A DNA stretch of 64,000 nucleotides from the NCBI GenBank assembly GCA_947625545.1, contig CANQOW010000001.1, forward strand, positions 2,129-66,128, written 5' to 3'. Below, one piece after another: positions 38,294 through 44,242 of the stretch. Each line of letters begins with the position of its first letter. Within the stretch, counting starts at the first letter, position 1. Made by a program: the position numbers and the translations under genes. Origin of the DNA: an uncultured Clostridia bacterium (GTDB lineage Bacteria > Bacillota > Clostridia > TANB77 > CAG-508). The notes beneath the pieces were generated by a model. That model was not told the origin of the DNA and made no database searches. It saw nothing but the letters and a program-made list of their open reading frames with translations.

Positions 38294-40078
38294 ATGAAAG
38301 AACTAGAATATCCATTTGACGTTAATTACATAATGAAGAACAAGAAAAAAATGAAAAAAGAACTTCTATTAAAACCGGGACTAATAGAAAAAAATATAGC
38401 AATATTAGGAGGCTCAACAACAAGTGAAATAAAAAATATGTTAGAATTATTTTTATTAAACTATGGAATAAAATCAAATTTCTATGAATCAGAATATAAT
38501 AAATTCTATGAAGATGCAATGTTTGGTAACGAAGAATTAGATAACTTTAAACCAGATATTATCTATATACATACAACAAATAGAAATATTATAGAATATC
38601 CTAATATGTATGACGACGAGAAAATTATTGAAGACAAACTAAACTATGAATATAATAAATTTTCAAAAATATGGGAAAAACTATTTGAAAAATTTAATGC
38701 AACAATAATACAAAATAACTTTGAATACCCATATTATCGTCTATTAGGAAATAAAGATGCAAGTGATATTCACGGAAGAACAAACTTTATAACAAGATTA
38801 AATCAAAAATTTTATGAATATGCACAAAATCATAAAAACTTTTTCATAAATGATATAAACTACGTATCTTCATGCTATGGCTTAGATAAATGGGCAAATC
38901 AATTCTATTGGCATATGTATAAATATGCTATGGAAGTACCTGCAATACCATATTTATCATTTAATATAGCAAACATAATAAAATCTATATATGGAAAAAA
39001 TAAAAAAGCATTTGTATTAGACTTAGATAATACTTTATGGGGAGGAATAGTTGGAGATGATGGCGTAGAAAATTTAGCGATAGGACCAGAAGTACCAAGT
39101 GGACAAGTTTATACAGAATTCCAAAATTATTTAAAAGAATATAAAGATTTAGGAATTATATTAAATGTAAATTCTAAAAATGAATATGAAAATGCAATAG
39201 CAGGTTTAAACCACCCAGCAGGAACATTAAAACCAGATGATTTTATCATAATAAAGGCAAATTGGAATCCTAAAAATCTTAATATAAAAGATATAGCAGA
39301 AGAATTAAATTTAGGAGCAGATAGTTTTGTTTTTGTTGATGATAATCCAGCAGAAAGAAAAATATGTAGAGAATATATAGATGGACTTTCAACACCTGAG
39401 ATAGATGTACCAGAAAATTATATAAAAATAATAGATAAAAATGCTTACTTTGAAATGACGAACTTTTCAAATGAAGATTTAAAGAAAAATGAATTATATA
39501 AAGATAATGCAAAAAGAAGTCAAATGATGGCAACATTTGATAATTATGATGATTATTTAAAATCATTGAATATGAAAGCAGAAATTTCTACTTTTAAACC
39601 AATTTACTTAGAAAGAATATCACAATTAAGTAATAAAAGTAATCAATTTAATTTAACAACAAAAAGATATTCATTAGCAGATATAGAAGCGGTTAACAAT
39701 GATGAAAACTATATAAAATTATATGGAAAATTAGAAGATATATTTGGAGATAATGGTGTTATAACAGTTGTAATAGGAAATATAAAAAATAATGATGAAT
39801 TACATATAGATTTATGGATAATGAGTTGTAGAGTATTAAAAAGAAATATGGAATTTGCAATGATGGACAAGTTAGTAGAAAAAGCAAAAGAAAAAGGGAT
39901 TAAAACAATATATGGTTATTATTATCCAACACTAAAAAACAAGATGGTAAAAGACTTTTATAGTACAACACAAGGATTTGAAGAAATATCTTGTGATAGT
40001 GAAGGAAATAAAATATATAAATTAGATATATCAAATGGATATACTAATAAAAATAATGTAATAGAGGTGTATGAATAA
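38294..40078 (+). CDS. FkbH-like domain / HAD-IIIC family protein with C-terminal acyltransferase-like domain (predicted ACP-loading enzyme)
   Basis: HAD motif I VLDLDNTLWGG and a HAD-IIIC-type core. C-terminal ~150 aa is GNAT-like. The stop overlaps the ACP start (ATGA). Confidence 0.65.
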   Translation: MKELEYPFDVNYIMKNKKKMKKELLLKPGLIEKNIAILGGSTTSEIKNMLELFLLNYGIKSNFYESEYNKFYEDAMFGNEELDNFKPDIIYIHTTNRNIIEYPNMYDDEKIIEDKLNYEYNKFSKIWEKLFEKFNATIIQNNFEYPYYRLLGNKDASDIHGRTNFITRLNQKFYEYAQNHKNFFINDINYVSSCYGLDKWANQFYWHMYKYAMEVPAIPYLSFNIANIIKSIYGKNKKAFVLDLDNTLWGGIVGDDGVENLAIGPEVPSGQVYTEFQNYLKEYKDLGIILNVNSKNEYENAIAGLNHPAGTLKPDDFIIIKANWNPKNLNIKDIAEELNLGADSFVFVDDNPAERKICREYIDGLSTPEIDVPENYIKIIDKNAYFEMTNFSNEDLKKNELYKDNAKRSQMMATFDNYDDYLKSLNMKAEISTFKPIYLERISQLSNKSNQFNLTTKRYSLADIEAVNNDENYIKLYGKLEDIFGDNGVITVVIGNIKNNDELHIDLWIMSCRVLKRNMEFAMMDKLVEKAKEKGIKTIYGYYYPTLKNKMVKDFYSTTQGFEEISCDSEGNKIYKLDISNGYTNKNNVIEVYE

Positions 40079-40320
40079 TGGAAAGAGAAGAAATTTTTGA
40101 AAGATTAAACGGTGTATTTAGAGATGTTTTTGATGACGATAGCATAGTTGTAACAGAAACAACAACTGCAAAAGATATTGAAGATTGGGACAGTTTAGAG
40201 CATATTAATTTAGTTGTTGCAGTAGAGCAAGAATTTGGAATTAAATTTAATATGGGTGAAGTAACAACAATGAAAAATGTTGGAGATATGGTAGATATAA
40301 TTATTTCGAGAATATCTTAA
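40078..40320 (+). CDS. acyl carrier protein
   Basis: 80 aa, acidic, DSL phosphopantetheine-attachment motif (EDWDSLEHINLV). Confidence 0.85.
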   Translation: MEREEIFERLNGVFRDVFDDDSIVVTETTTAKDIEDWDSLEHINLVVAVEQEFGIKFNMGEVTTMKNVGDMVDIIISRIS

Positions 40321-40397
40321 AATTATAATAATTTCACCAATTATAAAAATATTGTAATTGGTGATATTTATTTTTTTAATAAAATAGGGGGATAAAA

Positions 40398-42995: not shown

Positions 42996-43011
42996 AAGGA
43001 GAAATTTTAAA

Positions 43012-43515
43012 ATGATAGAAAAGCCTAAAAGTATTGGTACTGTACACACACACACACACACACACACACACAATTACTTAGAAGCCGGAAAATATAATAC
43101 ATATAAATTTGAAGATATAAAAATTGGAATGGAAGAATCATTTCAAGTAAATCTTACAGAAGATATGATGAAAAAATTTTTAGATATAACACAAGATATA
43201 AATCCATTACATAATGATATAGAATATGCAAAATCAAAAGGTTATAATGAAAAAGTAGTATATGGAATGTTAACCTCATCATTCTTATCAACCCTAGCAG
43301 GTGTATATTTACCTGGCAAATATAGTTTAATTCATAGTGTTGAAATTATATTTAAAAAGCCAGTTTTTATTTCAGATAGTCCATTAACAATAAAGGGTAT
43401 TGTTTCAGAAATAAATGAAGACTTTAAACAAATAAAAATAAATGTATCAATTACAAACAAAAAACAAGAAAAAGTTTGTAGAGGAATAATGAAAGTGGGG
43501 GTTATAAATGAATAA
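43012..43515 (+). CDS. MaoC-like hotdog-fold dehydratase with (AC)14 tract in 5' end
   Basis: MaoC motif DITQDINPLHNDIEYAKSKGY...VYGML. The leader MIEKPKSIGTVHTHTHTHTHNY comes from the SSR at 43044-43071. Confidence 0.75.
   Translation: MIEKPKSIGTVHTHTHTHTHNYLEAGKYNTYKFEDIKIGMEESFQVNLTEDMMKKFLDITQDINPLHNDIEYAKSKGYNEKVVYGMLTSSFLSTLAGVYLPGKYSLIHSVEIIFKKPVFISDSPLTIKGIVSEINEDFKQIKINVSITNKKQEKVCRGIMKVGVINE
43044..43071. repeat. (AC)14 dinucleotide SSR inside start region of MaoC-like gene
   Basis: 28 nt AC repeat, in frame with the downstream hotdog domain. It is preceded by the same ttggtactgtac context as the SSR at 36854. Confidence 0.95.
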
Positions 43516-44242
43516 TAAGGTATTATTAATGACAGGAGCATCTTCTGATATAGGATGTAAAATAATTAGCGAGGTAGCAGATGAATTCGACTATATAATT
43601 GCACATCATATAGGAGATGATGCAAAGTTAGCAAATTTAAAAGAACAATTAGGAGAAAAATTAATATTATTATATGGAAATTTTTTAGATGAAGAAGGAA
43701 CATATAAATTTGTAGAAGATGTTAAAAATACTGGAAAAATTCCAACACATATAGTACATTTACCAGCAGGAAAATACGAAAATATAAAATTTGGTAAAAT
43801 TACATGGAATAAATTTAATACAGATATTAATATAGCATTACGTTCTTTAGTTATTATATTAAATAATTTTTTACCAGAAATGGCAAAGAATAAATATGGT
43901 AAAATAATAGTTATGTTATCATCATGTACACTAAATATACCACCAAAATATGTATCTAGTTATGTAACTACAAAATATGCTTTATTAGGCTTAGTAAAAG
44001 CATTATCAAATGAATATGCAGATAAAGGTATTCAAATAAATGGTGTATCACCATCAATGATGGAAACAAAATTTTTAAAAGATATTCCAGAATTAATTAT
44101 TCAACAAAATGCAGCCAATAGTCCAACAGGAAAAAATCTTTCTGTTGATGACGTAGTACCAATGTTCAAATTCTTATTATCTGAAGATGCAAATTGTATA
44201 ACAGGGCAAAATATGGCAATAACAAATGGAAATATAATGTAA
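43508..44242 (+). CDS. short-chain dehydrogenase/reductase (3-oxoacyl-ACP reductase-like)
   Basis: TGASSDIGCKI cofactor motif and catalytic YVTTKYALLGLVK (YxxxK). Confidence 0.8.
   Translation: MNNKVLLMTGASSDIGCKIISEVADEFDYIIAHHIGDDAKLANLKEQLGEKLILLYGNFLDEEGTYKFVEDVKNTGKIPTHIVHLPAGKYENIKFGKITWNKFNTDINIALRSLVIILNNFLPEMAKNKYGKIIVMLSSCTLNIPPKYVSSYVTTKYALLGLVKALSNEYADKGIQINGVSPSMMETKFLKDIPELIIQQNAANSPTGKNLSVDDVVPMFKFLLSEDANCITGQNMAITNGNIM

Follow-up and report, generated by a model that had tools for sequence, protein, structure and literature searches.

Introduction

As reported in 2025, MBOAT/SGNH pathways other than Dlt operate without a carrier protein (PMC12148441). Acyl shuttling by an FxYxxF tyrosine is established by experiment for DltX/DltB/DltD and PatA/PatB; the motif is fused to the MBOAT in the acetyl-CoA-using enzymes (PatA and AlgI), whereas in Dlt it resides on the separate microprotein DltX (PMC12148441). 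The current division sets Dlt, in which a carrier is the donor and DltX is separate, against the remaining systems, in which acyl-CoA is the donor and the motif is fused (PMC12148441). In this study, we analyzed a 64-kb stretch of DNA (64,000 nucleotides of contig CANQOW010000001.1, assembly GCA_947625545.1, from an uncultured Clostridia bacterium; hereafter the window), which contains a six-gene module at 38294-44242 that mixes both arrangements and adds a non-adenylating loader. Based on protein families and structural models, we propose with moderate confidence that this module is a carrier-dependent MBOAT/SGNH system that would esterify a cell-surface glycopolymer with a C3 hydroxy acid.

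FkbH-family enzymes (FkbH, OzmB and the enzymes of tetronate pathways) charge a dedicated acyl carrier protein (ACP) with a glyceryl unit taken from 1,3-bisphosphoglycerate, and the order FkbH-dehydratase (DH)-ketoreductase (KR) of the bryostatin-type loading module is a precedent for a lactyl starter. Similarly, D-lactyl-ACP arises from FkbH in some polyketide loading modules (PMC7901079). With regard to expression control, GCAGA repeats in the leader peptide of Streptococcus gallolyticus pil1 have been shown experimentally to control ribosome-induced terminator destabilization (PMC3894217). Our literature searches found nothing that joins FkbH with MBOAT, polysaccharide, O-antigen or capsule, although a brief prior mention is still possible. 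Additionally, they found no pathway report for glycerate or lactate esters on gut-bacterial surface polysaccharides, and the term "lactyl" gave only protein lactylation.

Results and discussion

A six-gene module with an FkbH-like loader

The module consists of six close-packed genes on the + strand, with two overlaps and gaps of 12-77 nt:

38294-40078, +, FkbH-like loader, 594 aa
40078-40320, +, carrier protein, 80 aa; overlaps the FkbH gene by 1 nt
40398-41939, +, MBOAT, 513 aa; 77 nt after the carrier gene
41952-42995, +, protein X, 347 aa; 12 nt after the MBOAT gene
43012-43515, +, MaoC-type hotdog dehydratase, 167 aa; fused to a repeat-bearing start module
43508-44242, +, SDR, a FabG-like short-chain reductase, 244 aa; overlaps the MaoC gene by 8 nt

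This layout agrees with a preliminary description of the same DNA, which had noted six co-oriented, overlapping or near-abutting genes, and most of the identities proposed there hold up against profile models. The first gene product, taken as an FkbH-like/HAD-IIIC protein with an intact DLDNT motif, exceeds the curated cutoffs of TIGR01686 (257.6 bits; cutoff 146.65), TIGR01681 (63.3 bits; 35.75) and FkbH_N (45.5 bits; 27). Its domains are FkbH_N, a HAD-IIIC phosphatase and a C-terminal transferase, with DLDNT at residue 243 and SCR at residue 511. The Cys of SCR, which lies in the transferase domain, presumably plays the role that it has in OzmB and FkbH. Moreover, the protein matches PDB entry 3slr (E = 1.8e-51) and is 76-99% conserved in its top 120 database homologues. 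Based on its family, it is predicted to form glyceryl-S-carrier from 1,3-bisphosphoglycerate.

The 80-aa product of the second gene, described earlier as a carrier with a DSL site, passes the PP-binding model (PF00550, 24.2 bits; cutoff 20.8), and DSL is its phosphopantetheine site. It reaches up to 45.6 bits on ACP models, every one of these scores being under the equivalog cutoff, and it is acidic, with an isoelectric point of 4.1. The last two genes likewise show clear model matches to the proposed MaoC hotdog dehydratase and YxxxK reductase: the MaoC protein scores 42.8 bits on Pfam MaoC_dehydratas, and the SDR scores 107 bits on adh_short_C2 and approximately 100 bits on FabG and ketoreductase models and contains the motifs TGASSDIG and YVTTK. 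The 64-kb window contains no AMP-binding open reading frame (ORF) and thus no DltA, as the preliminary description had also concluded for DltA-type adenylating enzymes.

The MBOAT carries a fused shuttle motif

The protein encoded at 40398-41939 is an MBOAT despite a Pfam score below threshold. Homologues at 54-79% identity carry PF03062, and the sole sequence match in the PDB is DltB (E = 8e-13), in an alignment that spans WRNWH and the catalytic WHG histidine. The full motif reads WRNWHITLGAW. H285, H342, F508, I509 and Y510 do not vary across 32 homologues, and F513 hardly varies. The AlphaFold model, with a predicted local distance difference test (pLDDT) score of 86, has DltB (6bug) as its best Foldseek match, with a target-normalized template-modeling score of 0.75. 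These observations support the earlier assignment of an MBOAT with a WRNWH motif and a catalytic His, for which His342 is the predicted residue.

In contrast, the DltB-like architecture assumed at first is not borne out. The window MBOAT has a C-terminal extension of approximately 100 residues relative to DltB, scores 121.7 bits on the DltB equivalog model TIGR04091 against a cutoff of 375, and ends in FIYRQF, which matches the FxYxxF acyl-shuttle motif and is fused as in PatA/AlgI (PMC12148441). The tail is flexible in the model (pLDDT < 50 at residues 500-513). Because the shuttle is fused to the MBOAT at its C-terminal end, no DltX is needed.

Carrier-linked MBOATs have in common the ending YGxGYxxxxFIYxxF and 17 additional residues inserted after the WRxWH helix and before the catalytic His. 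The window MBOAT has its Lys/Arg-rich insertion at approximately residues 301-326, and the surrounding loop holds 10 Lys/Arg residues versus one Asp/Glu. AlgI-like MBOATs of the same genomes do not have this Lys/Arg-rich insertion, and their partners are ALGX-family proteins; the window MBOAT is 30% identical to the AlgI-like MBOATs of related genomes. The acidic carrier possibly docks on the basic insertion at the cytoplasmic face of the MBOAT.

Protein X is predicted to adopt a DltD-like SGNH fold

Protein X matches no Pfam family at E <= 0.01 and no NCBIfam model. Its structural model (pLDDT 94.8) shows an N-terminal membrane helix followed by an SGNH fold with a helical insertion, and three DltD structures head the Foldseek matches (E = 6e-5 to 4.7e-4). 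D45, G50, S52, H283 and N285 are invariant; they include the block-I Gly-x-Ser (G50, S52) and the block-V His (H283) of SGNH proteins, and Ser52, in the sequence GSS, is a candidate nucleophile. Since X combines a membrane anchor, an SGNH fold, DltD structures as its top matches and an invariant Gly-x-Ser and His, it would work like a partner of the DltD/PatB type, and it is the predicted final transferase onto the polymer.

The preliminary description had seen X as a DltD/AlgJ-like partner. The fold and the membrane anchor do resemble those of DltD, but by sequence X falls in neither the DltD nor the AlgJ family; judged on sequence grounds, it is a member of an unnamed SGNH family. Membership in the DltD, AlgX or AlgJ sequence families was ruled out, as X and four distant family members have no Pfam match. 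Additionally, none of 10 X relatives scanned matched DltD or ALGX, and the relative from Roseburia (L075; labels of this form denote the related loci used for comparison) gave only a weak GDSL_2 match. The family is large, with 7,948 clusters at 50% identity that match at E <= 1e-3, 2,092 of which reach 1e-30, and its distant members likewise have no Pfam coverage over the X domain. The present analysis suggests a role for a large family that has no Pfam or NCBIfam model.

One X-family relative from the database search, P0481 (1079 aa), fuses an Acyltransferase-3 (AT3) domain (residues 36-321) to an X-family domain (378-670), followed by GH85_C/fn3-like modules, and it resembles the AT3-SGNH fusions of OatA/OafA. 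The existence of this fusion supports the view that X receives acyl groups from a membrane acyltransferase, and it follows that the X family partners AT3 proteins too.

X genes also form arrays, with one to five paralogues per locus. The longest arrays hold up to five tandem paralogues (L021 13747-17945; also L018, L033, L044 and L057), and in L021 four of them directly follow one MBOAT gene. This arrangement suggests a single MBOAT supplying a number of SGNH transferases that differ in their acceptor sites.

Carrier and MBOAT genes co-occur across loci

The comparison set comprised 79 related loci, and 66 non-redundant loci had a family MBOAT; the relatives come almost entirely from rabbit-gut metagenome-assembled genomes labeled uncultured Clostridia or Bacilli. 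FkbH and carrier genes lie just upstream of the MBOAT gene in 54 of the 66 loci, and an AMP-ligase and a carrier gene do so in five. The carrier gene thus adjoins or lies near the MBOAT gene in 59 loci, and it is placed between the loader and MBOAT genes in 54. The six loci with neither loader nor carrier are contigs that end within approximately 3 kb upstream of the MBOAT gene. X adjoins the MBOAT in approximately 60 loci. The unit presented at first from this single locus, namely FkbH, ACP, MBOAT and a DltD-like partner, accordingly recurs in other genomes (approximately 54 of 66 loci).

The gene order FkbH-carrier-MaoC-SDR-MBOAT-X is found in many loci, with the tailoring genes between carrier and MBOAT. 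The loader can be exchanged for a DltA-like AMP-ligase: L071 and L076-L079 read AMP-binding, PP-binding, MBOAT ending in FxYxxF, and X. Two loci with distant X relatives from other lineages show both arrangements again, namely FkbH, carrier, Glyoxalase_4, X and MBOAT in L082 (37% GC) and PP-binding, AMP-binding, X and MBOAT in L083 (50% GC). The median identity to the window proteins falls from 85% for FkbH and 81% for the carrier to 65% for the MBOAT and 50% for X. Together with the X arrays, this gradient is consistent with cytoplasmic chemistry that stays the same while the outer enzyme, specific to its acceptor, diversifies.

According to one alternative, two independent systems lie together, in which the MBOAT and X would be an acetyl-CoA-dependent O-acetylation pair of the PatA/PatB or AlgI/AlgJ/AlgX type, while the product of FkbH, carrier, MaoC and SDR would be used in the cytoplasm, e.g., for acylation of a nucleotide sugar or a lipid-linked repeat unit. 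FkbH-like proteins are also found in loci without a known adjacent MBOAT, such as B. fragilis BF1531 (PDB 3slr). The 30% identity to AlgI-like MBOATs points in the same direction, and a fused FxYxxF is typical of acetyl-CoA-using MBOATs (PMC12148441). However, the module encodes no cytoplasmic acyltransferase able to unload the carrier, and carrier, MBOAT and X persist when the loader shifts from FkbH to an AMP-ligase, distant lineages included. Furthermore, the tailoring genes sit between the carrier and MBOAT genes, and the carrier-linked MBOATs form a clade with the basic insertion, whereas the AlgI-like MBOATs of the same genomes have none and possess their own ALGX partners. Two separate systems are therefore unlikely. 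Collectively, the co-occurrence, the swappable loader, the placement of the tailoring genes and the clade-specific insertion favor a coupling of the carrier to the MBOAT.

In L079, which has an AMP-ligase-type module, a gene for a pyridoxal phosphate-dependent enzyme with an ornithine/diaminopimelate/arginine-decarboxylase or alanine-racemase fold (7091-8305) lies between the ligase and the carrier, which hints at an amino-acid cargo other than D-alanine.

The module lies at the end of a polysaccharide locus

The window has a G+C content of approximately 23%, and nearly all of its genes are on the + strand. A polysaccharide locus at 13.9-38 kb encodes a PglF-like dehydratase, a DegT aminotransferase, a NeuD/PglD-type N-acyltransferase, an initiating sugar transferase, several GT4 and GT2 glycosyltransferases, a UDP-glucose dehydrogenase, two TupA-like ATP-grasp enzymes, an EpsG-type polymerase and a CapA-like protein, and an LCP ligase is encoded further upstream.

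This setting bears on the acceptor. The same machinery might serve a teichoic acid, another wall polymer or a lipid rather than the capsule or extracellular polysaccharide of the surrounding genes. Dlt, the only characterized carrier-dependent MBOAT system, targets lipoteichoic acid (PMC12148441); the distant X cluster L080 lies beside teichoic acid genes for TagF-like glycerophosphotransferases; and the module of L082 lies outside any obvious polysaccharide locus. Nevertheless, in the window and in most related loci, the module lies within, or at the end of, a polysaccharide locus that is rich in glycosyltransferases and includes an EpsG-type polymerase and an LCP ligase. Moreover, X is the most divergent of the proteins and occurs in arrays of up to five paralogues, which fits many acceptors, as in serotype-variable polysaccharides. 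An acceptor other than the polymer of the surrounding locus is accordingly regarded as improbable.

Tailoring genes and the predicted cargo

The tailoring genes differ among loci. MaoC-SDR and Glyoxalase_4 mostly exclude each other: approximately 21 loci have only MaoC-SDR, approximately 20 only Glyoxalase_4, six neither and three both. In approximately half of the loci (some 25), a gene for a Glyoxalase_4 protein (VOC fold, 129-131 aa) replaces MaoC-SDR between the carrier and the MBOAT, for example, at 6056-6445 of L001 and 7596-7991 of L082. Its fold is that of methylmalonyl-CoA epimerase, which by analogy would suggest that the protein epimerizes C2 of the carrier thioester. For the window, the likely cargo, again by analogy, is glyceryl, turned to lactyl by MaoC and SDR. 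Because sister loci carry Glyoxalase_4 or neither set, the cargo would differ among strains (glyceryl, its epimer or lactyl). Moreover, the FkbH product itself must be an acceptable cargo, since six loci have FkbH and a carrier and no tailoring gene.

A different cargo is conceivable, in that the FkbH-like protein would load something else or MaoC and SDR would process a 3-hydroxybutyryl- or crotonyl-type intermediate on the carrier. The usual substrates of MaoC and FabG-like enzymes are 3-hydroxyacyl and 3-oxoacyl thioesters, and the best NCBIfam match of the SDR, below cutoff, is a ketoreductase of unrelated function. In contrast, the module has no ketosynthase or acyl-ligase for chain building, FkbH lies far above its curated cutoff and is strongly conserved among its top homologues, and the six loci with FkbH, carrier and no tailoring gene speak for direct use of its product. 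To our knowledge, all characterized FkbH-family enzymes use 1,3-bisphosphoglycerate. We consider a cargo of another kind quite unlikely. An ordinary dlt operon was ruled out, because AMP-binding ORFs are absent from the window and neither the DltB nor the DltD model accepts the corresponding protein.

The preliminary description had further named a thiolase and a 3-hydroxyacyl-CoA dehydrogenase (16978-19553) as possible tailoring enzymes. This proposal was rejected. The two genes lie 19 kb upstream, between the genes for a DegT aminotransferase and a NeuD/PglD-family N-acyltransferase (TIGR03570, 193 bits; cutoff 160.8) and in the company of a PglF-like gene, and in none of the 79 related loci does such a pair stand beside the module. 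The amino-sugar company and the absence from the related loci place the pair outside the module. The row at 13926-20185 encodes a PglF-like dehydratase, a DegT aminotransferase, the 3-hydroxyacyl-CoA dehydrogenase, the thiolase and the NeuD/PglD-type N-acyltransferase. More likely, the pair provides 3-hydroxybutyryl-CoA for amino-sugar N-acylation, and the row resembles a route, separate from the carrier module, to an amino sugar that bears N-linked 3-hydroxybutyrate.

Repeat tracts point to phase variation at three points

Three (AC)n tracts and several further elements accompany the module:

36813-38042, +, AT3 membrane acyltransferase gene (Pfam Acyl_transf_3, 86.9 bits); fused to a start module
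36854-36881, (AC)n tract of 14 units, in the AT3 start module
38057-38085, +, promoter-like site, TTGACA-17-TAAAAT
38119-38202, +, leader ORF, 27 aa, MKNVENLVAV(HT)n...
38148-38189, (AC)n tract of 21 units, in the leader ORF
38222-38273, +, hairpin with a U-rich tail, resembling an intrinsic terminator
40334-40364, +, terminator-like hairpin of 13 bp with a T-rich tail, within the 77-nt carrier-MBOAT gap
43044-43071, (AC)n tract of 14 units, in the MaoC start module

The AT3 gene is a neighbor of the module, outside its core. The start module consists of a ribosome-binding site (RBS), ATG, approximately nine codons, (AC)n read as (His-Thr)n, and GGATAT, and its leader consensus is M-K-x-x-(A/L)-(E/K)-(T/S/N)-(L/V)-x-x-V. 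In 1.3 Mb of related loci, we found 18 non-redundant (AC)n start modules of 8-21 units. Every one is on the coding strand, and they either open AT3, MaoC and X-paralogue genes or lie upstream of an AlgI-like MBOAT gene or of FkbH. In simulation, AT3 and MaoC are in frame only if n mod 3 = 2 (n = 11, 14 or 17), and at n = 14 both are ON. A length difference is seen in one locus that is present in two assemblies: L002 13861-13888 and L003 9289-9304 are identical over approximately 180 nt save for a 17-nt indel at the tract, so that the MaoC start module has 14 versus 8 units, plus ACTGT, and the frame is shifted. The indel reflects either natural ON/OFF variation or an assembly artifact.

The three tracts had been noted earlier, the third as an unfused copy of the start module. 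The tracts themselves are real, and shuffled sequence contained no such tract, but the third copy proves to be more than an unfused start module, as it belongs to a conserved promoter-leader-terminator unit. The promoter-like site agrees with the consensus at 11 of 12 positions, is the best in 36500-44700, and is a consensus match only. Tract length determines whether the leader ORF stops at 38200, 38213 or 38217. The hairpin between the leader ORF and the FkbH start folds at -15.6 kcal/mol (z = -5.5), a stability not reached in any of 200 shuffles, and is followed by the FkbH RBS. The same layout precedes FkbH in L020, L073 and, with a decayed tract, L017, where the hairpins are non-homologous (z = -6.4 to -9.5); in L020 and L073, TTGACA-N17-TATAAT or TATACT lies upstream of the leaders. 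This recurrence with non-homologous hairpins makes it unlikely that the third copy is a dead remnant.

In the window, L020 and L073, the three frames of the leader stop approximately 4-11 nt, 20-24 nt and 28-39 nt after the tract, and the last of these stops falls at or within the 5' arm of the terminator stem. By analogy with pil1, the promoter, leader ORF and terminator probably form a phase-variable attenuator. Phase variation thus appears to act at three points, namely the operon leader, MaoC and AT3, and these three switches would yield several surface chemotypes. The MaoC switch would alter the identity of the ester (glyceryl versus lactyl) and not its presence. The (AC)n modules and the leader-terminator unit would represent a compact natural case of surface chemistry under combinatorial phase variation among uncultured gut Bacillota, and surface phase variation bears on phage and immune evasion.

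The hairpin in the carrier-MBOAT gap (-14.7 kcal/mol, z = -5.0) is the sole terminator-like site called across 36500-44700. It may raise the expression of the loader and carrier over that of the membrane parts or protect the mRNA.

Proposed mechanism

Taken together, the family models, the absence of dltA, the co-occurrence of the four core genes and the DltD-like fold of X agree with the core of the preliminary description, that is, a Dlt-like, carrier-dependent trans-membrane acylation. In the mechanism that we propose, the FkbH-like enzyme would, as its family membership implies, take 1,3-bisphosphoglycerate, remove a phosphate and place the glyceryl unit on the phosphopantetheine arm of the carrier. 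Following the FkbH-DH-KR logic of trans-acyltransferase polyketide synthases (PKSs), MaoC would dehydrate glyceryl-S-carrier to the enol of pyruvoyl-S-carrier, and SDR would reduce it to lactyl-S-carrier; in sister loci, with Glyoxalase_4 instead of MaoC-SDR or with neither, the cargo would vary by strain. The acidic carrier would then dock at the cytoplasmic face of the MBOAT, possibly on the Lys/Arg-rich insertion, and His342 would move the acyl group to Tyr510 of the flexible C-terminal FIYRQF tail at the outer face. The tail would pass the group to Ser52 of the membrane-anchored SGNH protein X, and X would esterify a hydroxyl of the polysaccharide, or of another wall polymer, made by the surrounding locus. 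Phase variation would be superimposed at the (AC)21 leader ORF and terminator before the operon, at the (AC)14 tract on MaoC, which would toggle the cargo between glyceryl and lactyl, and at the (AC)14 tract on the neighboring AT3 gene.

Several observations weigh against this proposal. Its support consists throughout of homology, synteny and models, and the action of MaoC and SDR on glyceryl-carrier is drawn from analogy. The window MBOAT scores only 22.5 bits on the Pfam MBOAT model (cutoff 27), and the fused-shuttle architecture has so far been tied to acetyl-CoA donors (PMC12148441). X has no sequence link to DltD, since a 44-homologue profile compared with all PDB sequences gave nothing at E <= 10; furthermore, the canonical DxxH acid is not evident in X, where an Asn occupies position -3 relative to His283. 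The teichoic acid genes beside the distant X cluster L080 also count on this side. As for expression, the leader frame at n = 21 gives the earliest stop, from which low read-through is predicted in the window, and the operon may be in a low state; in addition, the genome is metagenome-assembled, and tract lengths may depend on assembly.

If the proposal is true, ester-linked glycerate or lactate is predicted on gut-bacterial surface polysaccharides, and the module provides a gene set for finding such esters. We also put forward, as a tentative generalization that we hold with less confidence than the reading of the module itself, that carrier-dependent MBOAT/SGNH acylation may be a widespread, unrecognized class of surface-polymer modification in Bacillota, with an interchangeable loader (FkbH or AMP-ligase), on-carrier tailoring cassettes and fast-diversifying X arrays. 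In this clade, it might provide glyceryl and lactyl esters whose presence and identity are switched by a lineage-specific (AC)n module that serves both as gene switch and as attenuator.

Other features of the window

Four paralogous genes for AAA_14 and DUF4143 ATPases bracket the polysaccharide locus, two upstream of it (6422-7690 and 11100-12437) and two directly 3' of the SDR gene (44414-45607 and 45743-47095). These genes may mark the edges of a variable locus. Inside the polysaccharide locus, 34371-36791 encodes a protein of 806 aa that combines a right-handed beta-helix with leucine-rich repeats and whose C-terminal segment (GDTTGDGDINSLDALNV...) is dockerin-like by eye; this protein could modify or depolymerize the polymer. 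A HepT-like ribonuclease toxin gene (13364-13798) immediately precedes the polysaccharide locus and is overlapped upstream by a small ORF (region 12994-13798), which is probably its antitoxin.

Comparison with known systems

Similar to Dlt (DltA, DltC, DltB, DltX and DltD), the module is predicted to rely on a cytoplasmic loader for charging a small carrier that bears phosphopantetheine, on an MBOAT whose His is conserved, on an FxYxxF shuttle, and on a membrane-anchored partner with an SGNH fold that esterifies a wall polymer. The closest solved structures are also those of Dlt, DltB for the MBOAT and DltD for X. Unlike in Dlt, the loader is of the FkbH/HAD-IIIC type and not adenylating, the shuttle is fused to the MBOAT and not carried by DltX, the probable cargo is a carrier-tailored hydroxy acid in place of D-alanine, and X has no match to the DltD Pfam model (PF04914).

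With PatA/PatB, AlgI/AlgJ/AlgX and WssH/WssI, the module shares two extra C-terminal MBOAT helices ending in FxYxxF, a separate extracytoplasmic partner of the SGNH type, and, by prediction, a sugar polymer as target. However, systems of the PatA/AlgI type use acyl-CoA and no carrier (PMC12148441), whereas here the carrier and loader are adjacent. In addition, the module MBOATs form a clade with a Lys/Arg-rich insertion, which distinguishes them from AlgI-like MBOATs, and X by sequence belongs to neither the ALGX nor the PatB family.

The pairing of an FkbH-domain enzyme with a dedicated ACP is that of FkbH/FkbJ, OzmB and the tetronate pathways. As in FkbH-DH-KR loading modules, a dehydratase and a ketoreductase are at hand for the conversion of glyceryl to lactyl (PMC7901079). 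In contrast to the polyketide systems, there is no PKS in the locus, and the acyl-carrier is apparently handed to an MBOAT and not to a ketosynthase; moreover, dehydration and reduction fall to stand-alone MaoC and SDR proteins instead of PKS domains.

The control region resembles that of pil1 of Streptococcus gallolyticus in its succession of promoter, repeat-bearing leader ORF, terminator and operon, an arrangement that in pil1 lets the repeat set where the leader ribosome stops relative to the stem-loop terminator and gives stochastic ON/OFF transcription (PMC3894217). In pil1, the repeat is the pentanucleotide GCAGA and the product is a pilus, whereas in the window the repeat is the dinucleotide (AC)n and the genes are predicted to modify a polysaccharide. 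Furthermore, in AT3, MaoC and X-paralogue genes, a start module of the window type is joined straight to the coding sequence.

Collectively, since the MBOATs all end in FxYxxF, the module is best described as a hybrid of Dlt, from which it has the carrier donor, and of PatA/AlgI, from which it has the fused shuttle. Its joining of a carrier donor, a fused motif and a non-adenylating loader would mean that the carrier route is older, or more modular, than has been supposed.

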